Assembly (NCBI GenBank): GCA_040326155.1
Contig: JBEQLE010000004.1
Coordinates: 1-64,000, forward strand
Direction: 5' to 3'
Length of the DNA stretch: 64,000 nucleotides
Source: Leptospirales bacterium
GTDB lineage: Bacteria; Spirochaetota; Leptospiria; Turneriellales; JAOUFE01
Within the stretch, counting starts at the first letter, position 1, and each line of letters begins with the position of its first letter. Of the stretch, positions 3,170-19,273 are shown piece by piece. Made by a program: the position numbers and the translations under genes. The notes beneath the pieces are model-generated. The model made no database searches. It was not told the DNA's origin and saw only the letters and a program-made list of their open reading frames with translations.

Positions 3170-3736
3170 TTATATTGCTTTTTTCAACAAAGATTTAGCC
3201 AGATAATAGGTAATTACATAAACAGCCACCGCCACAAGCATTGCCAGTGGAATCCATCCCAGAAATAAATGAAATATTGATTCTCCATAATCGCGCGTTA
3301 TCGTAAGGAAATCTTCCCAGGATTGTATCATTTGTTTCAACCCTGTTTTAAAGGCATCCCAGTGCATCGGTTCAGCTTGAACCATAAACTCCCCCAATCT
3401 CAAACAAGGAAAAAGAATTAGTATATAAAGAGGTGTTGAAATCCATACTCCAAGATAAACAGAGAGATGGTTTAAATTGAAAATAAATGCAAAAAATACA
3501 CCTATTAACATATGGGTTCCCAATAGCGGGAAAGTTCCCGCAACAAAACCCATGGCAAACCCGGTAGCAAGGTTTTTAGGTGTAAGCCCCTTTATTAGCA
3601 AATTTTTAATAGATACGCCTACAAAATGGACGTATTTTCGAATAAAGCCTTTGCTGGTGTCACGTCCAAATTCTTTCTTAATTTGTTCTACTTCGTCTTT
3701 TGCTCCTCCCAATTCATTCTTTATACTCATATCCAT
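3170..3736 (-). CDS. DUF2062 family membrane protein (likely start 3736 or 3730)
   Basis: TPKNLATGFAMG..GTFPLLGTH pattern typical of DUF2062. Confidence 0.8.
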   Translation of the reverse strand: MDMSIKNELGGAKDEVEQIKKEFGRDTSKGFIRKYVHFVGVSIKNLLIKGLTPKNLATGFAMGFVAGTFPLLGTHMLIGVFFAFIFNLNHLSVYLGVWISTPLYILILFPCLRLGEFMVQAEPMHWDAFKTGLKQMIQSWEDFLTITRDYGESIFHLFLGWIPLAMLVAVAVYVITYYLAKSLLKKAI

Positions 3737-4004
3737 AGAAGATCGAAACAAGAGACAATTTGTAAATTGTTTAAATGTTCTATCGGGCAAACAGTTCTGG
3801 CACACACAAAGCACTTTTATCATTGAAGTATTCAATCCTAACTACATTTTCTAATCATTATTTACCTCTTTTTACACTTTCAAAAAACGATTTGCTTATG
3901 TCCATTTTCAAAGAAAAAACCTATTTTTTTTTCTTGCCATTTTAATGGGATTTTTTTTGAGGTCCTGATCATGAAAAAATTACAATAAAAAAACCTATTT
4001 TCTA

Positions 4005-4032
4005 TTGACATCAGAACATTGCATCGTACTAT
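4005..4032 (+). promoter_or_regulatory. Putative sigma70 promoter of the cyc2-cytochrome operon
   Basis: TTGACA-N16-TACTAT, followed by leader hairpin CAAGAGGACTATC/GATAGCCCTCTTG (~4045-4072) and GGAGG RBS. Confidence 0.55.
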
Positions 4033-4098
4033 GTCGGTAATGACCAAGAGGACTATCTTGATAGCCCTCTTGAACATAACATTTTTTGGAGGAAAAGC

Positions 4099-5247
4099 AT
4101 GAGAAATTGTTTTAAAAAAACAACTGGTTTATTAGTAGCCGTTGTTGTTGCTGGCGCTTTCACGAGTTCAGCATTCGGCGTTGCATCATTTGCACGTCAA
4201 ACTGGACTTGAGTGCCTTAGTTGTCACACAAGTGCACCTGGTTTCCCATCTTTAAACAGCTTTGGAGCTGCTTTTAAAGCTGGCGGATACACAATGGGTC
4301 AGAATTTTGTCGAGGGTGAGAAACTTTCCATCCCCGCTGCTCTGAATACATCTATTGTAACTAAAATTCGGGCAAAATACCATGGTGGAGACGCTTATGG
4401 TGCAAATCCATCATTGACAGTAAATACTCCTGATGAATATGCAATATTTTTTGCCGGCCGTGTTGGTGAAAACGTAGGATTTGTTACTGAGTATGCTGGT
4501 GGACCTTTGTCATTCAAAATGGTTTTTGCATATGATGTAGGACCTGTTAAAATAGCTGTCGTCCCTTGGTGGTCAGATGCATTTAGCGCAGCGTGGGCTT
4601 TTGAAGGCTTATCAACTGGCGCTGTTCGAAACATTCGACCTTCAGAATCTAGTGTAGTTTCTGCTTTTAAAGAGCAAAGTTACGGTGGTGGTGGTGAAGC
4701 TGCTGGTTTAGGTCTATATGTATGGCATCCAATGGGATTCCTTGTATACACTCCATTCGTCAAAGCATATGACGGCGGATTGAACCAATCAGCTGCACAT
4801 TACGTTCGACTAGCGGTGACTCCTACTTTAGGACCACTTGAAACTGGAATAGGTTTTGCTTACTACACTGGAACTACCAGTGGAGCAACTGACTTTGGCG
4901 ATATTGCGACACAACCTGTGACAGATTACAATGCTTATGGCGTTGACTTGCAAGTTATTGGCAATATAGGTATTCCGCTTTCTGCGTTTATCACTTACTT
5001 TGCTGATGTTGAAGCAGCTACTTCTGACTTTGCTATTTACGTTGAAGCCGGATTGATTGAAAACACACTTAACTTTGGTCTTGGTTACAACATGCATCTT
5101 CATGATGATGTAAACAGCATGCTTATTGTCTTGAAGTACAACATATTGCAAAACCTTAGAGTATCCGTTGACGTTACTTACTATCTTGATGATGGTTTAG
5201 GTAATAGCGGATACGAAGTTATGCCCATGCTTTTTGGTAGCTTCTAA
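4099..5247 (+). CDS. cyc2: Cyc2-like fused monoheme cytochrome c / outer-membrane porin (cluster 1-like)
   Basis: Signal peptide; ASFARQTGLECLSCH..FPSLNSFGAAFKAGGYT; EGEKLSIPAALN; PDEYAIFFAGRVGENVGF; TGAVRNIR; amphipathic beta-strands; terminal Phe. Confidence 0.85.
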   Translation: MRNCFKKTTGLLVAVVVAGAFTSSAFGVASFARQTGLECLSCHTSAPGFPSLNSFGAAFKAGGYTMGQNFVEGEKLSIPAALNTSIVTKIRAKYHGGDAYGANPSLTVNTPDEYAIFFAGRVGENVGFVTEYAGGPLSFKMVFAYDVGPVKIAVVPWWSDAFSAAWAFEGLSTGAVRNIRPSESSVVSAFKEQSYGGGGEAAGLGLYVWHPMGFLVYTPFVKAYDGGLNQSAAHYVRLAVTPTLGPLETGIGFAYYTGTTSGATDFGDIATQPVTDYNAYGVDLQVIGNIGIPLSAFITYFADVEAATSDFAIYVEAGLIENTLNFGLGYNMHLHDDVNSMLIVLKYNILQNLRVSVDVTYYLDDGLGNSGYEVMPMLFGSF

Positions 5248-5268
5248 TAAAAACTCTTAGGAGAAAAT

Positions 5269-5613
5269 ATGAAGAAGTTATTAACATTGACAGTAGCAGT
5301 AGCAGTAGCAGGTTCTATGAGCCTGGTATTTGCTGCTGATGGCGCAACTATCTTTAAGAAGAATGGTTGCACATCATGTCACAACCCCACCAAAGATCAG
5401 CTTAAATCTGGTCTTGGCCCGTCCTTGGTAAATATTACCAAGGCTTATAAAGCCGGTGGTGGAAAAGCCGCTTTGGTCACATTCCTGCAAGGGAAAGGTG
5501 CGCCAATAGTAGCTCCGAAAAAGTTTAACACTATGAAAACTCAGCTTGGTAAAACTAAGAAGTTAAGCGATGCTGATCGTAGTGCTTTAGCAGATTACAT
5601 CCTTTCTAACTAA
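5269..5613 (+). CDS. Periplasmic monoheme class I cytochrome c (c555/c552-like)
   Basis: Signal peptide ending VFA; ADGATIF..GCTSCH; GPSL; distal Met in FNTMKTQL; LSDADRSALADYI; Lys-rich. Confidence 0.95.
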   Translation: MKKLLTLTVAVAVAGSMSLVFAADGATIFKKNGCTSCHNPTKDQLKSGLGPSLVNITKAYKAGGGKAALVTFLQGKGAPIVAPKKFNTMKTQLGKTKKLSDADRSALADYILSN

Positions 5614-5642
5614 TTTTAGTTAATTAGATGTAAATTTTCAAC

Positions 5643-5669
5643 GCCCCGCCTTGTGCGGGGCTTTTTTTT
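5643..5669 (+). terminator. Rho-independent terminator
   Basis: GCCCCGC-CTTGT-GCGGGGC followed by T-run. Confidence 0.9.
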
Positions 5670-5695
5670 TATATACTGAATAATGGAAAAATAAA

Positions 5696-6172
5696 ATGGA
5701 AATTGCAATTATATTAGGCAGCAAATCTGATTGGGCGGTAATGGAGTCTTGTGCCAATACACTCAAAGAGTTCAATATTGAATATGATGCTAAAATATTT
5801 TCTGCACATCGAACTCCAAACGAACTTACTGCCTACCTAAACGACATTACTGAAAACAAGCATGTTAAGGTAATAATTGCCGCTGCAGGTTTAGCGGCCC
5901 ATCTGGCCGGGGTTATCGCCTCTCACACAATAGTTCCTGTAATTGGTGTCCCGATGGAAGCTGGAGCACTCAAAGGAGTTGACGCACTCTATTCTATGGT
6001 TCAAATGCCACCGGGCATTCCTGTCGGTACTGTCGGAATCGGCAAACCGGGAGCAATAAACTCAGCATTGTTCGCAGTTTCTATTTTAAGCGTATCAAAC
6101 AATACTTTAAAAGAAAAAATCATCGAATATCGTAAAAAACAAGCCGAAAAAGTACTTTCACAACAAATTTAA
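5696..6172 (+). CDS. purE: N5-carboxyaminoimidazole ribonucleotide mutase
   Basis: GSKSD, SAHRTP, AAHLAGVIA, PVIGVP, QMPPGIPV. Confidence 0.97.
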   Translation: MEIAIILGSKSDWAVMESCANTLKEFNIEYDAKIFSAHRTPNELTAYLNDITENKHVKVIIAAAGLAAHLAGVIASHTIVPVIGVPMEAGALKGVDALYSMVQMPPGIPVGTVGIGKPGAINSALFAVSILSVSNNTLKEKIIEYRKKQAEKVLSQQI

Positions 6173-6264
6173 AAACGACCATTTACTCCTCCAAATCAAC
6201 TTAACTTGCGCTAAATTATTTGTATTTCTATTGACACAATAGATATTTTATGGATCGTGTGGAT

Positions 6265-7290
6265 ATGAATCTAAGCTACCCATCGATTGTCGAACAATTA
6301 TCAGATAAAAAAGAACTAACTACGGAACAAGCCTCCTGGATTATGAACGAGACGATGTCAGGAAATCTTACGTCTGCACAAATCGCGGGATGGTTATTAG
6401 CGGCTCGTTGTAAAGGCGAAACTCCCGCAGAAATTGCCCGGTTTGCGACAATTATGCGTGAAAAAGCTGTTCAAGTACCCGACCTTCCGCCGTTGTGCGT
6501 TGATACATGCGGTACGGGCGGCGATAAGTCCGATCTTATTAATATTTCAACTCTCTCAGCGATGGCTCTGGCTGCGCAAAACATTCCCGTTGCCAAGCAT
6601 GGTAACCGAGCCATCTCTTCTAAAAGTGGTTCTGCTGATATTCTTGAAAAACTTGGATACCCTTTAAGCGAAACCCCAGAAGAAATTTCACAACGAATAA
6701 AAGATAAAAGTTTTGCCTTCTTATTTGCGCCAAATTTTCACCCGGCGATGAAATATGCCGGTCCCGTTCGAAAGGAACTCGGTGTGCGAACTGTATTTAA
6801 TATCCTGGGGCCGCTTTCTAACCCGGCTCGCGCCGGAGTCCATTTACTGGGGGTCTACACTGCGCAGCTTCTTGACCCGATGGCCCAATGTTTAAACCTG
6901 CTCGGCGTTTCTTGCGCTCTGGTAGTTCATGGCGAACCGGGTCTTGATGAAATTAGTCCGGTAGGCAAAACCAAATATCGCCTGCTACACAAAGGAACAA
7001 TAACGCCCGGTGAACTTGATTCATCCGATTTTGCATTGACGATTAAAAATCTGGAATCTCTTAAGGCGCCTACTGCCGAGGTAGCGCTGGAAAAAGCCCA
7101 AAACATTATGAACGGGACATTTCTGGAAGGAATTGAGGCGGTCTCGCTAAACGCAACAGCCGCGCTTTATTTGTATGAACTTGCCCTGGAAAAAACAGAT
7201 TTACCTCTGAAGGAGTATATCCAGAAAAATGTTAAAATACTCATTGAAAAAATAACGAGTAAAGATATATCATTGGCAACTGTTATTTAA
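6265..7290 (+). CDS. trpD: Anthranilate phosphoribosyltransferase (start 6250 or 6265)
   Basis: DTCGTGGD, NISTL, AKHGNRAISSKSGSAD, RTVFNILGPLSNP. Confidence 0.97.
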   Translation: MNLSYPSIVEQLSDKKELTTEQASWIMNETMSGNLTSAQIAGWLLAARCKGETPAEIARFATIMREKAVQVPDLPPLCVDTCGTGGDKSDLINISTLSAMALAAQNIPVAKHGNRAISSKSGSADILEKLGYPLSETPEEISQRIKDKSFAFLFAPNFHPAMKYAGPVRKELGVRTVFNILGPLSNPARAGVHLLGVYTAQLLDPMAQCLNLLGVSCALVVHGEPGLDEISPVGKTKYRLLHKGTITPGELDSSDFALTIKNLESLKAPTAEVALEKAQNIMNGTFLEGIEAVSLNATAALYLYELALEKTDLPLKEYIQKNVKILIEKITSKDISLATVI

Positions 7291-12755: not shown

Positions 12756-15089
12756 TTACATGGAGTACCGGAGACCAAAAAGAAGTTCGATACCCGGTTG
12801 AGGATGATAAGGCGGAATAAATCCATTCGGGTTTTGTATGGATGATTGTTGTGAATTCACCGGTCTAACCCCGTCAGCGCTTTGCCGGCCCATGGTCGCA
12901 TACTTCGTGTTAAATAAATTCTTAATAACAATTTGCGGCTCTATCTGTGTATTCTTAAAAATATTTTTACCTGTCAACGTCAAATTAAACACAAAAAATT
13001 CTTCCAGATACCCATCCGGGTTTTTTTCCGTCACATAATTATAACCTACGTCTGAAATAGTCTGGGCTGTTTTCGGGTAATAATATAACGCCGTCCTGGG
13101 AGCTTTGGTCTGTCCATACCATATGCCGGTAAAATTAATATTCAATTTTTCGAAGAAAAAATAATTCACTCCCATAAAAACCTTATGAGACGGCATGCCA
13201 TAGATTTCATATGCAAGATCTTTTCCTATTGTATAGGTATAATGGCCAAACAGCCTGAAATTCTTGAAAATTTCAAAATCGACGCCTGCACTTACTCCCG
13301 AATAATTTGTTTTACCTGTGTTCTGGTATATATTTGTTTTTGCGGATGATACATTTGGGTTCGGCACAACTGTAATTAGATTTTCCAATCTACTATGAAA
13401 TATATTTACTTTAAAAAGCATAGTCTGGGTTATATAAAAATTCACCTCTGTTTCAGCAGTGCGAATTTTTTCCGGTTCCAGACGGGTATTTCCTCTCCAC
13501 TCATCGTATAACTCAAATGCGCTGGGCGCTTTGAACGCTTCTCCATATAAAAATTTCATACCGATCATTTTATTTGGGACGGCCACAAAAGAAGCCCGAG
13601 GGTTAATCGAATAACCATAATCGGTGTTATAGTCGAATCTTCCGCCACCGGTTAAGATATAATTTTCCGAAAACTTGTGTTCATCCTGAAGAAAAACACC
13701 TGCTTCGTATGAATAGTAGACCGGTGTTACACTTTGCTTTTCGTCCGAATATGTAGAAGAAACGATCGATGAGTCCGTACTCTGGCCCTGACCAAGCCCT
13801 ATTCCGTAATATTGTTGCACGTTTCGTTCCAGCAGAAAACCGGTAATCAGCTCATTATCTTCAGAAATTGCTATGTCGAACTGCTGTTCAAGCCCAATAG
13901 AAGAACCTTCGCCATGATAGTTTTTCTTCTTGTTTTTGGTACGGTTGGTCCCATCATCAACACTTTGGTATTTATATGTATAAACAAACCGTGTTCCGGG
14001 TAAAATAGCAGAACCTCTGTAGATTAGTCTGGTTTTTGAGGAAAATTCGCTTGTAAAATCAAGAGTCTGCTGGGTGTATATAGTATATCCCATATGCTGT
14101 GCTCGAAAAGGTATATTCGGGGATGCCGCAAAATATTCATACCCAACGACCTCGCTACCGAGTCCTTCTTCTCTGAGCCACCAGTTCCAACCGACCTCAA
14201 AATTATCTGCTACATATTTACCTCTAATATAATAATCGTTCAAACCGGTATCAAAACCATTTGGCAGGCGTATGGCAGAACCATCCGGGTTTTGATTCAC
14301 CATGTCACCATACTCTGTTGTTGTTACCGTCTCCGGTTCATAATTCTTATGGAAATAATTACCTGGGTCGTAGCGACCAAGACCTCTGTCCCCCTCACTG
14401 TAATACCAGCGCCCGGTCAGCCATAAGGCATTATTACTGCCCCACGTATAACCGATTAGAATTTCGGGAGAAAATGTATTATAAAGCCCATAGTAAATTG
14501 CGGTGTCTAAAACGAGACCATTCTCTCTGCCTGAAAAAATAGAAGACGATGAGCGGGTTATAATATTAACAATGCCTGCATACGCGTCCGCTCCATATAA
14601 CGTAGAGCCCGGTCCGCTAATAATTTCTACTCTTGCAACATCTAAAAAGGCAAAGTTATAACCAAGGTTTTGCGCCCAGTGACTGGAAATTTCATTTTGT
14701 TCGATACCATCAACAAGAATAAGAAGTTTGGTTTGACCGACATCGCCCATTCCCCTGACCATAATATGCGTAGGGTACTCACCGGAAGGTTGCCCGCTGG
14801 CGACATGAAACCCAGGAAGATCGTTCAACAATTCCGATAAATTTCGATATCCTCTGTTTTTAATTTTTTCGCGATCGACGACAATAATATTTGCTGGAGC
14901 CAACATAATTTGTTGAGGCTTTTTGGAGGCTGATACAACTTTAACTTTAAGCAGGTCTTCAATACTGGGGTTTTCATTCAGAAGTTTTTCCAACTCCTCG
15001 TCTTGAGAATTTTGAGCTGCAAGATTCTGAACACAAAGTAACATAATAAATAATATAGCTATCTTATTAACCAATCTCATAATTTTCAT
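12756..15089 (-). CDS. TonB-dependent receptor (YfiR-associated type)
   Basis: Signal peptide; VVSASKKPQ; plug RVEIISGPGSTLYG; LEPEKIRT; beta-barrel. Confidence 0.93.
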   Translation of the reverse strand: MKIMRLVNKIAILFIMLLCVQNLAAQNSQDEELEKLLNENPSIEDLLKVKVVSASKKPQQIMLAPANIIVVDREKIKNRGYRNLSELLNDLPGFHVASGQPSGEYPTHIMVRGMGDVGQTKLLILVDGIEQNEISSHWAQNLGYNFAFLDVARVEIISGPGSTLYGADAYAGIVNIITRSSSSIFSGRENGLVLDTAIYYGLYNTFSPEILIGYTWGSNNALWLTGRWYYSEGDRGLGRYDPGNYFHKNYEPETVTTTEYGDMVNQNPDGSAIRLPNGFDTGLNDYYIRGKYVADNFEVGWNWWLREEGLGSEVVGYEYFAASPNIPFRAQHMGYTIYTQQTLDFTSEFSSKTRLIYRGSAILPGTRFVYTYKYQSVDDGTNRTKNKKKNYHGEGSSIGLEQQFDIAISEDNELITGFLLERNVQQYYGIGLGQGQSTDSSIVSSTYSDEKQSVTPVYYSYEAGVFLQDEHKFSENYILTGGGRFDYNTDYGYSINPRASFVAVPNKMIGMKFLYGEAFKAPSAFELYDEWRGNTRLEPEKIRTAETEVNFYITQTMLFKVNIFHSRLENLITVVPNPNVSSAKTNIYQNTGKTNYSGVSAGVDFEIFKNFRLFGHYTYTIGKDLAYEIYGMPSHKVFMGVNYFFFEKLNINFTGIWYGQTKAPRTALYYYPKTAQTISDVGYNYVTEKNPDGYLEEFFVFNLTLTGKNIFKNTQIEPQIVIKNLFNTKYATMGRQSADGVRPVNSQQSSIQNPNGFIPPYHPQPGIELLFGLRYSM

Positions 15090-15723: not shown

Positions 15724-18042
15724 ATGAGTATCGAACCAAATGATATGAACGTGCTATTGGACAAATATCAAAAATGGATGAACAATAAATCGCTCCGCGT
15801 GAAATATACTCTGGGTCTTGTAGCTACTTCCGTTCTGGTATTGTTGATATCAGGGATAAGTTTTCTAGTCCTTTTTTTTATAACTTCAAAAAATGTCTAT
15901 CTATCTACAACAAATTCAAGTGCTCACTCCTTAATCTCGAATATCGCTCCCGCAGTTATGTTTAACGACAAACAAGCTGCGGAAGAAACCCTGCAATCGG
16001 CAATAGAGCATCACCCCTTTATTCGCGGGGGTTGCGTAATAATATCGTCAGGCAACTCGCAAGAAGAAGTCTTTGCAGCATACTTTAAAATCGGAAAGAA
16101 TAAACTCTCTTGTGAAAATACAGACCTGAATTCCGGGAATAATAGTTCATATACTATTATTCGGTCTAAACTTGATACCAGAGACGATATTGGCGACCTG
16201 ATTATCTTTGCGGATTTTTCGCAATTAAGAGATACCCTGTGGCTTTATATAGGCATATCCCTGATTATTTTTGGAATTTCTATTATTATATCGATAGCGC
16301 TGGCGAAATATATGAAAAAAATATTTCTAAACCCTATTCAGGACTTAATTAAGTTTGTACGGCGCGTGATCACTAATAATGAATATTCAGAAAAAATAAT
16401 AAAAATTAATGATGATGAAATCGGAGTGCTGACCGATGAGTTCAACCATATGATGAAGATGATTCATCAAAGAGAAAAAACTCTGCAAAAATACCAGAAT
16501 GAACTGGAAAACAAAGTAATAGAAAGAACCAAAGAGCTGCAAACTTCGAAAGAAAATGCAGAGAAAGCAAATGCCTTCAAATCTGACTTTTTGGCAAATA
16601 TGAGTCATGAAATTCGAACACCTATGAATGCAATTCTGGGTTTTACCCAGATTCTTTCTAAGAAAGATCAAAACATTGAAGATCAACATTATCTAGAAAC
16701 CATTTTGAAAAATGGAAAAACCCTGCTCGCTTTAATTAATGAGATTCTCGATCTTTCTAAAGTGGAAGCCGGGAAAATGAAAATAGAATATGAGCCGGGT
16801 TCTCTTATTGGCATTTTGTATGATATGAGCAGCACCTTTGATACGAAAATTACCGAAGGTATTCAAATGATAATTGAAGCGGATGATAATGTTCCTGAAT
16901 ATATATGGCTTGATGACACCCGCATTCGTCAAATTTTAATCAATTTAATTGGCAATGCTTTTAAATTCACGGAAAAAGGACATGTGAAAGTTCGTGCCCA
17001 ACTAGAAAGAAACAACGTAGATGAAACCGTAGATCTGTCCATTTCAGTTGAGGACACCGGTATCGGAATTCCGAAAAATATGCTGGAAACGATTTTTGAG
17101 TCCTTTACGCAAAAAGAGGGCCAGGACATTAATAAATACGGCGGTACCGGACTCGGCCTGGCAATTACCAGGCAACTCATTCAATTAATGAATGGGGAAA
17201 TCTCATTAACCAGTAAAGTGAACCATGGCAGCGTTTTTACTGTGCTCTTGCGAAATGTGAAAATTGCCTCTACGAAAGACATTGTGCCGGAAACCCCGGA
17301 TACACTTGCGCTCGATATTTACCAATGGAATGGCGAGAAAATTCTGGTGGTGGATGATATTGAAGCTAACCGAAGCATTATTCAGGCTTATTTTGCACAT
17401 ACAGATGTAGAGGTTTTGTTAGCCGAAAATGGAAAAGAAGCCATTGACATTGCTCTAGAAAAACAACCTAATTTTATTTTTATGGATATTAAAATGCCTG
17501 TTATGGATGGAAGAAGGGCTATTGAAATTTTATCAGAAAACCCTCAGACAGCAGATATTCCTATTGTAGTAATTACCGCTAGTTTAATGGACTCAGAGGT
17601 GGATGCGGTTCGAGAAAGCTGCGTTGAGGTATTAAGAAAACCTGTTGAACTAGACGCCGTAAAAGATATATTAGTTCAACATTTGAATATTAAACCAAAG
17701 CCATTAGAAGAAAATGAGAAAACATCTGACGTTGATAAAACGAGGAAATCGTCACCGGCGAAGAAAATCGACGGGCGCGAACTTCATCAATACCTGCTCC
17801 ATGAAATTTCTCCTTTGATTCAGGAAATTCAAAATGATTACGATCTGGTACAGTTGAAACAAATAATTACAAATCTGGATAATGAAGTTCATGTTGATAA
17901 TAAAATTTTCAACTCCTGGTTAAGCGACATACGGCAGGCTATGCACTCTTTTGACAATGATCGAATCGACAAATGTCTTCATTCCTACTTCGAAATCTTA
18001 GAGACGTTGTCCGGCTCGAAGTCGGAACCATCAAACCAATAG
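15724..18042 (+). CDS. Hybrid sensor histidine kinase (CHASE8-like sensor, HAMP, HisKA, HATPase, REC)
   Basis: APAVMFND..AAEETL; DEIGVL; FLANMSHEIRTPMNA; GGTGLGL; MDIKMPVMDG. Confidence 0.95.
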   Translation: MSIEPNDMNVLLDKYQKWMNNKSLRVKYTLGLVATSVLVLLISGISFLVLFFITSKNVYLSTTNSSAHSLISNIAPAVMFNDKQAAEETLQSAIEHHPFIRGGCVIISSGNSQEEVFAAYFKIGKNKLSCENTDLNSGNNSSYTIIRSKLDTRDDIGDLIIFADFSQLRDTLWLYIGISLIIFGISIIISIALAKYMKKIFLNPIQDLIKFVRRVITNNEYSEKIIKINDDEIGVLTDEFNHMMKMIHQREKTLQKYQNELENKVIERTKELQTSKENAEKANAFKSDFLANMSHEIRTPMNAILGFTQILSKKDQNIEDQHYLETILKNGKTLLALINEILDLSKVEAGKMKIEYEPGSLIGILYDMSSTFDTKITEGIQMIIEADDNVPEYIWLDDTRIRQILINLIGNAFKFTEKGHVKVRAQLERNNVDETVDLSISVEDTGIGIPKNMLETIFESFTQKEGQDINKYGGTGLGLAITRQLIQLMNGEISLTSKVNHGSVFTVLLRNVKIASTKDIVPETPDTLALDIYQWNGEKILVVDDIEANRSIIQAYFAHTDVEVLLAENGKEAIDIALEKQPNFIFMDIKMPVMDGRRAIEILSENPQTADIPIVVITASLMDSEVDAVRESCVEVLRKPVELDAVKDILVQHLNIKPKPLEENEKTSDVDKTRKSSPAKKIDGRELHQYLLHEISPLIQEIQNDYDLVQLKQIITNLDNEVHVDNKIFNSWLSDIRQAMHSFDNDRIDKCLHSYFEILETLSGSKSEPSNQ

Positions 18043-18085
18043 AAACTCTTTACATAGTATCTAATTTCACTTTTGTGTACAGGTT

Positions 18086-19273
18086 ATGAGCTCTTCTAAG
18101 AAGAAACCTATGATTTTAATTGTCGATGATACTTCGGCAAATATTGAAGTGTTAATGGGTATTCTTGGCGGGGGTGAATATAAAATATCCGCAGCGGTGA
18201 ATGGAAAAGAGGGCATTGAAATGGCCGAAAAACTTCTTCCCGATCTAATTTTGCTTGATGTTATGATGCCCGTGATGGATGGTTATACGGCGTGTCGTCA
18301 TCTGAAAAACAGTATAAATACAAAACATATTCCAGTCATATTTTTAACCGCTAAAATTCAACCGGAAGATATAACGAAAGGGTTCGAAGCGGGAGCGGTC
18401 GACTATATCGTTAAACCGTTTAATGAATCTGAATTGCTGGCGCGAATTGAAAATCATCTGGAACTAAAGCAAAACAGAGAAGAGCTTAAAGAGGAACGTA
18501 ACGAGCTAAGAATAATAAATAAAACTATTGAAGAAGATTTGAACATGGCAAGAAGTATTCAGGAGATGGCGATGCCTTCGCAGCCTCCCAATGCATCTAT
18601 CGCATTTCACTACGCTTCCATGGCCCAGGTGGGTGGAGATTTTTACACTTTTTTTGAATTGTCGGATGGAAAACTGGGGTTGTTTATCAGTGATGTCTCA
18701 GGACATGGAATCGCCGCAGCTTTTATTACTTTGCTGATTAAAAACACATTGCAGCATAATCAAAACCATCTTGATGATCCGGAAACATTAATGGGTGCCT
18801 TGAATGAAAACTTATACGGTCAAACTGCCGGTAATTTTTTTACGGCAATTTATGCCATTATAGACTTTAAAAACAGTGAAATAGAATATGTTACTGCCGG
18901 GCACAACCAACCCTATATTATTGGAGAAGAAATTGAAGAGTTAGGTTGCGATCATAAAAGCCTTCCTATGGGAATTGTAAATAATACATATTTAAAAAAG
19001 ATAAACAAATATTATAAATCTCAAAAATCCTTTCTGACAAAAGGGTCTCGACTTTTATTTTATACGGATGGTTTAACAGAAGCCATTCGTCTCAGTGAAA
19101 AAGATAACCCGGACGCTCTGGACTTTGAATCTTCAAATTTATTAGATACGCTACTTCAAAATCGAAACGAAAGTGCTGAAAAAATTGTTCACAATGTTAT
19201 GGAAGATTTAAAACAATTTCGAGAGACTGACCATTTTGATGATGATGTCTGTATTATCTGCGCAGAGATGTAG
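18086..19273 (+). CDS. Response regulator with PP2C/SpoIIE phosphatase output
   Basis: LLDVMMP, KPF; VGGDF, DVSGHG, YTDGL, DDVC. Confidence 0.95.
   Translation: MSSSKKKPMILIVDDTSANIEVLMGILGGGEYKISAAVNGKEGIEMAEKLLPDLILLDVMMPVMDGYTACRHLKNSINTKHIPVIFLTAKIQPEDITKGFEAGAVDYIVKPFNESELLARIENHLELKQNREELKEERNELRIINKTIEEDLNMARSIQEMAMPSQPPNASIAFHYASMAQVGGDFYTFFELSDGKLGLFISDVSGHGIAAAFITLLIKNTLQHNQNHLDDPETLMGALNENLYGQTAGNFFTAIYAIIDFKNSEIEYVTAGHNQPYIIGEEIEELGCDHKSLPMGIVNNTYLKKINKYYKSQKSFLTKGSRLLFYTDGLTEAIRLSEKDNPDALDFESSNLLDTLLQNRNESAEKIVHNVMEDLKQFRETDHFDDDVCIICAEM

Follow-up and report, generated by a model that had tools for sequence, protein, structure and literature searches.

A cyc2-family gene with a c555-type cytochrome partner in a spirochaete of the Leptospira class: a candidate route for electrons from Fe(II)

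We analysed a window of 64,000 nucleotides of DNA from Leptospirales bacterium (assembly GCA_040326155.1, contig JBEQLE010000004.1), covering the first 64 kb of its 91.8-kb contig, and we focused on positions 4005-5670, where a gene coding for a protein of the Cyc2 fused cytochrome-porin family is followed by a gene coding for a small exported cytochrome c. Cyc2 is the main genetic marker for inferring microbial iron oxidation at neutral pH. In what follows, G000 denotes the host genome, G001 and G002 are genomes of other genera of the host's family, and L with a number denotes an individual locus. The features of the region, in window coordinates, are:

3170..3835, - strand: DUF2062 gene upstream of the pair (PF09835, E 1.5e-21)
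4005..4032, + strand: candidate sigma-70-like promoter, TTGACA-16 nt-TACTAT (10/12 matches)
about 4037..4080, + strand: 5' leader hairpin, core stem ~4045-4072 (folding compared with shuffles)
4088..4092, + strand: GGAGG ribosome-binding site, 6 nt 5' of the ATG (read from the sequence)
4099..5247, + strand: cyc2-family gene, 382 amino acids (aa), with signal peptide, monohaem domain, predicted 16-strand barrel and C-terminal Phe
5260..5263, + strand: GGAG ribosome-binding site of the second gene (read from the sequence)
5269..5613, + strand: gene for an exported Lys-rich c555-type class I monohaem cytochrome c, 114 aa (PF00034 and PDB matches)
5643..5670, + strand: intrinsic terminator with a stem of 7 G-C pairs, a 5-nt loop and a T-run (read from the sequence)
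5696..6172: purE downstream of the pair (TIGR01162, 187 bits)

A preliminary description of this stretch had drawn a self-contained unit of promoter, leader hairpin, two genes and terminator, inserted between DUF2062 and purE. Both open reading frames (ORFs) were confirmed, separated by 21 nt and flanked by these two neighbours. The terminator is clean, its stem (GCCCCGC-loop-GCGGGGC) spanning 5643-5661 ahead of the T-run, and the leader hairpin folds at -15.4 kcal/mol (z -2.43; an equally good fold in 2 of 200 shuffles), but promoter-like sites as a class do not exceed chance in the region (8 found; shuffles 5.5 ± 2.5), and the site at 4005..4032 is therefore kept as a candidate only. An Rfam search over 3800-5750 returned no family at threshold and only sub-threshold matches, which fell on the terminator. 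Judged from these signals, positions 4005-5670 are most likely a two-gene operon running from a promoter-like site to a strong terminator. The word "inserted" is doubtful, since in the related genus G001 purE likewise comes next after the cyc2 and cytochrome genes.

The 382-residue protein has a hydrophobic N-terminus followed by a single CxxCH haem-attachment site (C39-x-x-C42-H43), and its final residue is Phe. Its N-terminal signature region, GVASFARQTGLECLSCHTSAPGFPSLN, includes FARQT and CLSCH, the latter being the haem motif quoted for Cyc2 PV-1 too (PMC13741234), and the protein also contains the stretch GVASFARQTGLECLSCHTSAPGFPSLNSFG. The signal peptide (about residues 1-27) was called by eye; the likely signal-peptidase site, placed in the same way, lies between AFG and VAS and would give a mature N-terminus of VASFAR, three residues ahead of FAR, the same offset as in the Edman-sequenced N-terminus of Cyt572, YPGFARKY (PMC13741234). 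The mature protein has an isoelectric point (pI) of 4.6. Pfam and NCBIfam hold no family for the 382-residue protein, and a PDB sequence search gave no relative (best E 0.36). At E<=1e-3 there were 169 relatives among 8000 scored candidates, and an exhaustive search gave 818 clusters at 50% identity, 51 of them at <=1e-30. The haem site is kept in 253 of 259 fetched relatives, each of the 253 having exactly one CxxCH; the published pattern P.FAR[QK][TY] fits 171 of these 253, and the family's N-terminal signature among the relatives reads xPxFARQTGxxCxxCH....PxLNxFG.

Keffer et al. (2021; PMC8406198) characterise Cyc2 by PXFAR[Q/K][T/Y], a PXL 4 residues after CxxCH, a minimum length of 365 aa and a porin barrel of 16 strands. 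At 382 aa, the window's protein has the length; it also has a signal peptide followed by a single N-terminal CxxCH (residues 39-43), FARQT at the spacing usual for the family and, in the structural model, a 16-strand OprO/OprP-like barrel. The strict motif fails, with Ala in place of Pro (VASFARQT), a replacement that 20 of 242 relatives share and that is found in 16 of the nearest 30, whereas the G002 ortholog has Pro. The 382-aa protein belongs to the Cyc2 fused cytochrome-porin family: the architecture first proposed for it stands in FARQT, the single haem site, the length, the barrel and the C-terminal Phe, though not in the strict Pro or in the PxL spacing. The further motifs pointed out downstream of the haem site coincide with columns that are invariant or nearly so in an alignment of 46 family sequences (P50, L52, N53, G56, F59, K60, G63, G73, L76, S77, P79, N83, D112, E113, G120, R121, G127, T173 and G174).

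The AlphaFold2 model, built on a 46-sequence alignment, reached a mean predicted local distance difference test (pLDDT) of 84.4 and a predicted template modelling score (pTM) of 0.81, and bears out the barrel expected earlier, with 16 strands (assigned by DSSP) over residues 83-381 and short helices around the haem site. The top Foldseek matches in the PDB were OprP (2o4v) and OprO (4rjx/4rjw), with E values of 6e-8 to 1.5e-7; OprP and OprO are also the templates reported for Cyc2 (Keffer et al., 2021; PMC8406198). According to this model, the protein is a single c-type haem domain fused to a predicted 16-strand outer-membrane porin.

The 114-aa product of the second gene is a class I cytochrome c (PF00034, E 2.7e-10, above cut-off). 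Its best solved relatives are Aquifex c555 structures, namely PDB 2zxy, which was deposited as c552 (E 2.6e-15 over residues 23-113), and the engineered trimer 9l08, so that the likeness to Aquifex c555 remarked on in the preliminary description is borne out. It resembles Aquifex aeolicus c555 in being, by sequence, a class I monohaem cytochrome over the whole mature protein, with the CxxCH and the Met-ligand region aligned to 2zxy, as expected of the c555/c552 type; it differs from it in having short insertions, in being more basic and in being encoded beside a Cyc2 gene. The mature partner has 92 residues, of which 14 are Lys, with a pI of 9.9, in agreement with the Lys-rich character noticed at the outset. 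It has a single Met (M89), the axial ligand, and C34, C37, H38 and M89 are invariant in all 7 full-length partners.

The pairing of the two genes is conserved. A c555-like gene directly follows cyc2 in 9/9 distinct loci of the subclade to which the window's protein belongs; these are the window, G001, G002 (L002, L004 and L100, counted once), L096-L099, L101 and L102, the six metagenome loci among them having been retrieved with the window's protein and some being cut by a contig end. The gap between the genes is about 12-25 nt in the window, G001 and G002. Outside the subclade, a tblastn search (E<=1e-3) of the named loci found a c555-like relative only at L007 (E 2.7e-4), about 5.5 kb upstream of cyc2. 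A downstream cytochrome of some kind is present in 15 of the 67 named loci with enough downstream DNA: 12 are dihaem ORFs of 204-237 aa, 2 belong to spirochaetes and 1 is a 441-aa monohaem ORF. An annotated c-type cytochrome gene also lies directly downstream in 3 of 5 plasmid loci. Since downstream cytochromes are common across the family, the unit would be the familiar design of Cyc2 plus a periplasmic cytochrome, with a smaller carrier of another kind. In the rus operon of Acidithiobacillus ferrooxidans, which encodes Cyc2-Cyc1, the gene for a dihaem cytochrome c comes after cyc2. The order there, a cytochrome-porin gene followed on the same strand by a gene for a periplasmic c-type cytochrome, is the same as here, whereas the partner here is a 92-residue monohaem c555-type protein in place of a dihaem protein of ~200 aa, and the pair stands without attached cupredoxin or oxidase genes. 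A complex prediction with mature Cyc2, two haems and the mature partner scored 0.01 against a mark of 0.32, which speaks neither for nor against binding. As a side observation, the loci on plasmids or chromids (L132-L136; Methylocystis, Ralstonia, Paraburkholderia, Caballeronia and Ideonella) encode distant family members with FARQTG (FNRQTG in Ideonella) and FPELTP, and the Caballeronia record has a gene for a high-potential iron-sulfur protein (HiPIP) upstream of its Cyc2-family gene.

To place the protein among the known clusters, we scanned one genome per species and obtained 79 loci, the best of which was in a metagenome-assembled genome (MAG) titled Spirochaetia bacterium (40% identity). 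Among the others are loci of deltaproteobacterial, Nitrospirae and gammaproteobacterial MAGs, Ca. Ferrigenium straubiae KS, Sideroxydans and Gallionella MAGs, Mariprofundus micogutta ET2 and many other Zetaproteobacteria. Zetaproteobacteria hold both Cluster 1 and Cluster 3 genes, and Cluster 1 includes Gallionellaceae too (McAllister et al., 2020; PMC7029218). M. micogutta ET2 has a second, distant copy with FARKY, whose named relatives are nearly all Mariprofundus, Mariprofundaceae and Ghiorsea, and this FARKY-type group of Zetaproteobacteria was taken as an outgroup resembling Cluster 3; the trees have no row for Cluster 2 (Acidithiobacillus). The careful tree used 52 rows hand-picked from a set of 101, under LG+C20+F+G4 with posterior mean site frequencies (PMSF); L046, L056, L058, L070 and L077 were dropped for lack of a motif-bearing ORF, as were ORFs <360 aa and L002, a duplicate of L004. 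In this tree, the ingroup and the FARKY-type outgroup are split with support of 100/100. The window's protein falls in a 15-row clade (100/99) with proteins of two other spirochaete genomes and 12 metagenome proteins, this clade lies within a 20-row clade (100/97) that adds two sequences from Helicobacteraceae MAGs, and the 20-row clade is nested among Gallionellaceae, Zetaproteobacteria and other lineages. In a quick tree of all 101 rows the protein was nested as well, but with the opposite basal group. A second outgroup (Ralstonia, Caballeronia, Paraburkholderia, Ideonella, Methylocystis and a Rhodospirillales MAG) was added in a further quick tree, in which the ingroup was separated from the Ralstonia/Caballeronia/Methylocystis group with a Shimodaira-Hasegawa-like approximate likelihood ratio (SH-aLRT) of only 81.

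These trees support a place for the window's protein in the same major cluster as the Cyc2 proteins of Gallionellaceae and Zetaproteobacteria, as one of about five sublineages, and a position inside Cluster 1 is probable but not secured. The "cluster 1" of the preliminary description thus holds as regards the shared major cluster, whose basal branching varies between the trees. Like Cyc2 PV-1 of Mariprofundus ferrooxydans and other Cluster 1 Cyc2 proteins, the window's protein has a signal peptide, FARQTG before a single CxxCH, a PxL after it, a predicted 16-strand OprP/OprO-like barrel and an aromatic C-terminus. It differs from them in being 24-37% identical to the named Gallionellaceae and Zetaproteobacteria loci, in the Ala for Pro and two extra residues before PxL, in forming its own well-supported subclade, in its spirochaete host and in its length, 382 aa being shorter than most relatives. 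With Leptospirillum Cyt572 and the FARKY-type ("Cluster 3"-like) proteins, including those of other Spirochaetota families, it shares the fused architecture and the position of the N-terminal motif, but the motif is FARKY there and FARQT here, the barrels can be aligned by hidden Markov models (HMMs) over only ~70-140 residues, and the two types lie on opposite sides of the 100/100 split.

The host genome has 4.26 Mb in 171 contigs, with 39.6% G+C, a completeness of 94.7% and an estimated contamination of 1.7% (1.71%). SucA, encoded on the same contig 35 kb downstream of the pair, has its best named matches in Leptospira, Leptospiraceae and Spirochaetota (46-49% identity), and together with the grouping of the genomes these matches indicate that the host is a deep branch of the Leptospira class, in another order than the Leptospira-like family. 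The Leptospirales host suggested from the sequence was therefore right in its Leptospira-like character, although the host shares the class and not the order with the Leptospira-like family. The cyc2 gene is present in 3 of the 4 genomes of the host's family and in 0 of 57 others sampled from the same order and class, 27 of which belong to a family that we take to be Leptospiraceae. Between G000 and G001, PurE is 62% and the partner cytochrome 59% identical, while Cyc2 is 51% identical over residues 1-301 in one comparison and 40% over residues 1-382 in another; these values fit vertical descent with a faster-evolving outer-membrane protein, and the pair would thus have been inherited vertically within the host's family. 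In a phylum sample of 401 genomes, the cytochrome domain was matched in 8 of the 400 others (6/11 in family f18, 1/2 in f13 and 1/17 in f15). Four readable ORFs from other Spirochaetota families (L137, L139, L143 and L144, in genomes G109, G222, G239 and G338) are of the FARKY type, three of them with 406-430 aa and one a 141-aa reading (L137). Among the genomes searched, the FARQT type was found within the phylum only in the host's family, whereas Cyc2-family genes as such are not unique to it.

Close relatives of the pair are present in sediment RNA libraries, since metatranscriptome contigs from four runs of two studies are 95-98% identical to parts of 4047-4665 and 5207-5450. They include contigs over 4047-4261 (4 differences), 4052-4227 (3), 4069-4536 (22), 5214-5385 (4) and 5207-5450 (8). 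The last two (X2 record 11 and X4 record 14) run from the end of cyc2, with its stop codon, into the beginning of the cytochrome gene, although contigs that bridge two genes are no proof of a single transcript. No contig was found over 3400-4005 or 5622-6400, which does not mean that the pair is expressed more highly than the genes beside it.

The host genome was searched for haem-attachment and oxidase genes, as the preliminary description had proposed, and CcmF, CcmC, an aa3-type CtaD (cytochrome c oxidase subunit I) and two additional genes for haem-copper oxidases were found; cytochrome b is present as well. Other redox genes were seen besides these. NapA (1020 bits, cut-off 904; G000 C159:2503-5120; L128, L112) adjoins a 208-aa tetrahaem ORF and makes nitrate a possible acceptor. 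DsrA (510 bits), DsrB (417), DsrE/TusD (126) and DsrJ (143) are all above their cut-offs in G000 (C164:1550-3784, C164:12523-12867 and C101:3777-4262; loci L123, L124, L145 and L113), with DsrE on the dsrAB contig. Of 61 genomes searched, only the 4 of the host's family have DsrA above cut-off, the dsrA match being crossed by one in-frame TGA in G000 and by a TAA in two relatives. DsrD (PF08679) had no match in the host genome, nor in the control genomes, and is uninformative. Oxidative-type dsrAB was reported in 2025 in Leptospirae MAGs from estuary sediment (PMC12687941), and the Dsr genes found here suggest sulfur oxidation in the host's spirochaete family.

Sixty ORFs of the host genome contain CxxCH, the highest counts being 18, 16, 12, 9, 8 and 8 sites; ORFs with 18, 16, 12 and 8 sites lie at C55:51499-56471 and C167:6055-10280 of G000 and carry Geobacter-type CxxxxCH/CxxCH and c7-type domains. 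These multihaem ORFs add to a picture in which the cell may have several extracellular electron routes. As for carbon, the window encodes an oxidative tricarboxylic acid (TCA) cycle 2-oxoglutarate dehydrogenase. Of the carbon-fixation genes that had been thought worth looking for, neither RuBisCO nor CdhC was found in the genome; an ORF resembling the beta subunit of ATP-citrate lyase was. This 445-aa ORF (G000 C125, L131:306-7569, - strand) combines ATP-grasp_2 with an ATP-citrate-lyase Citrate_bind domain (54.5 bits; 0/14 control genomes match), and downstream of it lie a 906-aa CoA-ligase-like ORF, a CBS protein, and flavoprotein and Fe-S subunits of the fumarate-reductase type. A citrate-synthase-like domain was not detected, and the 445-aa ORF could be a reverse-TCA or citryl-CoA enzyme. 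From its gene content the lineage looks lithotrophic or mixotrophic, and this makes an energy-yielding use of Fe(II) plausible.

Elsewhere in the window, a 181-aa ORF (2196-2741, +) aligns with no more than positions 146-318 of the PdxA model, which has 320 positions; the N-terminal half must be in another frame or in an upstream ORF, so that a frameshift, an assembly error or a split gene are all possible there. The zone 7-14 kb downstream of the pair contains a TonB-dependent receptor of the haem/siderophore type (12756-15089, -) and a hybrid histidine kinase with a response regulator (15724-19273, +).

We favour, with moderate confidence, the view that the two-gene operon encodes a minimal conduit bringing electrons from the outer membrane into the periplasm, in which Fe(II) oxidation feeds a cytochrome c oxidase. 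Dissolved Fe(II) would be oxidised at the haem in or under the barrel of the Cyc2-family protein, the electron would then be handed to the c555-like periplasmic shuttle, and the shuttle would reduce the aa3-type cytochrome c oxidase, encoded elsewhere in the genome, with O2 as the acceptor. Inferred here are Fe(II) as the substrate, which way the electrons flow, their transfer from one protein to the other and what finally accepts them, whereas family membership, the predicted fold, the type of the partner, the conserved pairing and the haem-attachment and oxidase genes in the genome are established. The electron conduit proposed in the preliminary description is thereby supported, with its function, as was said there, a matter of inference.

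Several points weigh against Fe(II) oxidation by a Cluster 1 Cyc2 as the reading of this locus. Ala occupies a motif site at which 221 of 242 relatives have Pro, and PSL sits 6 residues after the His, a distance that is 4 in 187 of the 242, 5 in 44 and 6 in only 2; with the substitution and the spacing combined, the published screening pattern would have missed the window's protein. The haem region of the structural model is ill-defined, with pLDDT <50 at residues 21-30 and 32-36, so that the model bears out the barrel but not a haem plug. An approximately unbiased (AU) test under LG+G4 does not reject a 20-row clade that is basal to the other ingroup rows (p 0.8), and the tree with two outgroups has a five-way polytomy at the base of the ingroup. 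The RNA libraries may contain DNA, and the contigs come from relatives at 95-98% identity, not from the host strain. Neither RuBisCO nor CdhC was found in a genome that is 94.7% complete, which gives no sign of an obligate iron lithoautotrophy such as that of Gallionella or Mariprofundus. Finally, Cyc2 may have other functions, according to Keffer et al. (2021; PMC8406198).

The last point leads to the possibility that the pair is a general port for extracellular electron uptake or exchange, not specific for Fe(II), which would accept electrons from sources like reduced humics, mineral surfaces, species derived from sulfide, or partner cells. Most Cyc2 homologs are functionally unverified (Keffer et al., 2021; PMC8406198), the genome offers many other candidates for electron transfer at the outer surface (the 60 CxxCH ORFs, several with Geobacter- or DmsE-type domain matches), and DsrA above cut-off in all four family genomes implies a lineage that handles several inorganic donors; however, the same authors argue that a single haem in a narrow barrel suits dissolved Fe2+ and not solids, and known iron oxidisers dominate among the nearest named relatives, so we regard a general port as unlikely. 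Slightly less likely in our view is that Fe(II) is handled without energy gain, for surface detoxification or redox sensing, in a mainly organotrophic or sulfur-oxidising cell. The missing RuBisCO and CdhC, the 2-oxoglutarate dehydrogenase of the oxidative TCA cycle and the stand-alone character of the operon, without a linked oxidase or bc complex, would suit such a role, but a dedicated shuttle conserved at 9/9 loci suggests that electrons are passed on and not discarded, and an aa3 oxidase able to accept electrons from cytochrome c is present.

The electrons might also flow outward, with the pair delivering respiratory electrons to an acceptor outside the cell. In FeGenie's scheme some Cyc2 (cluster 3) may be connected with iron reduction, and Geobacter has genes of that kind (PMC7005843); Spirochaetota figure only as iron reducers in a 2026 trait survey (PMC12911419). 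The window's protein, however, is not of the FARKY (cluster 3-like) type, and the one measured Cluster 1 potential, +208 mV for Cyc2 PV-1 (Keffer et al., 2021; PMC8406198), taken with the c555-type partner, points to a high-potential, inward route; we consider outward flow very improbable. An artefact of assembly or binning, with the pair coming from another organism, would be conceivable for an assembly of 171 contigs with 1.71% estimated contamination, but the contig is 91.8 kb long, its G+C is 0.39-0.44 over 3900-5700, the genome value being 0.396, sucA with its Leptospira and Leptospiraceae matches lies 35 kb away on it, and the same pair occurs in two other genera of the family, in one of them with purE adjoining. 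The contig, whose integrity the preliminary description had left to be checked, is thus very probably sound, and a chimera is hardly credible.

Going beyond the pair, one may picture the host family as lithotrophic spirochaetes that take electrons from Fe(II) via Cyc2 and c555 and from sulfur via DsrAB/DsrE, respire O2 or nitrate and perhaps fix CO2 by an ATP-citrate-lyase-like route; we offer this wider picture as tentative, and on balance doubtful. We found no published iron-oxidising spirochaete in the literature, nor a Cyc2 assigned to the Leptospira class, although supplementary tables may list more. One Spirochaetota MAG is among the hot-spring MAGs credited with FeGenie iron-oxidation genes (PMC12501874), the 2026 survey, which covers 387 taxa, records Spirochaetota as iron reducers only (PMC12911419), and an acid-mine-drainage study gives "No" in all four trait columns of its table for two Spirochaetota MAGs (PMC8357290). 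The statement that no iron-oxidising spirochaete has been described therefore agrees with the literature we found, but it has to be read beside the FARKY-type relatives in other families and the one MAG listed with such genes (PMC12501874).

The novelty is modest: a known family, a new host lineage and a partner of the c555 type where a dihaem cytochrome is usual. The effect on knowledge is incremental because Cyc2 homologs are already known across many phyla (Keffer et al., 2021; PMC8406198). Even so, a Cluster 1-type copy inherited in a family of the Leptospira class, always accompanied by its own small shuttle cytochrome and with relatives in sediment RNA libraries, would extend the candidate iron oxidisers to Spirochaetota. 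With only two genes, the unit would lend itself to a clean test in a heterologous host, to see if Cyc2 and one cytochrome are sufficient for electron entry to the periplasm. If the wider picture of the host family is true, its members would be the first spirochaetes known to oxidise iron, and the pair would form a pared-down route of two proteins from the cell exterior to the respiratory chain.

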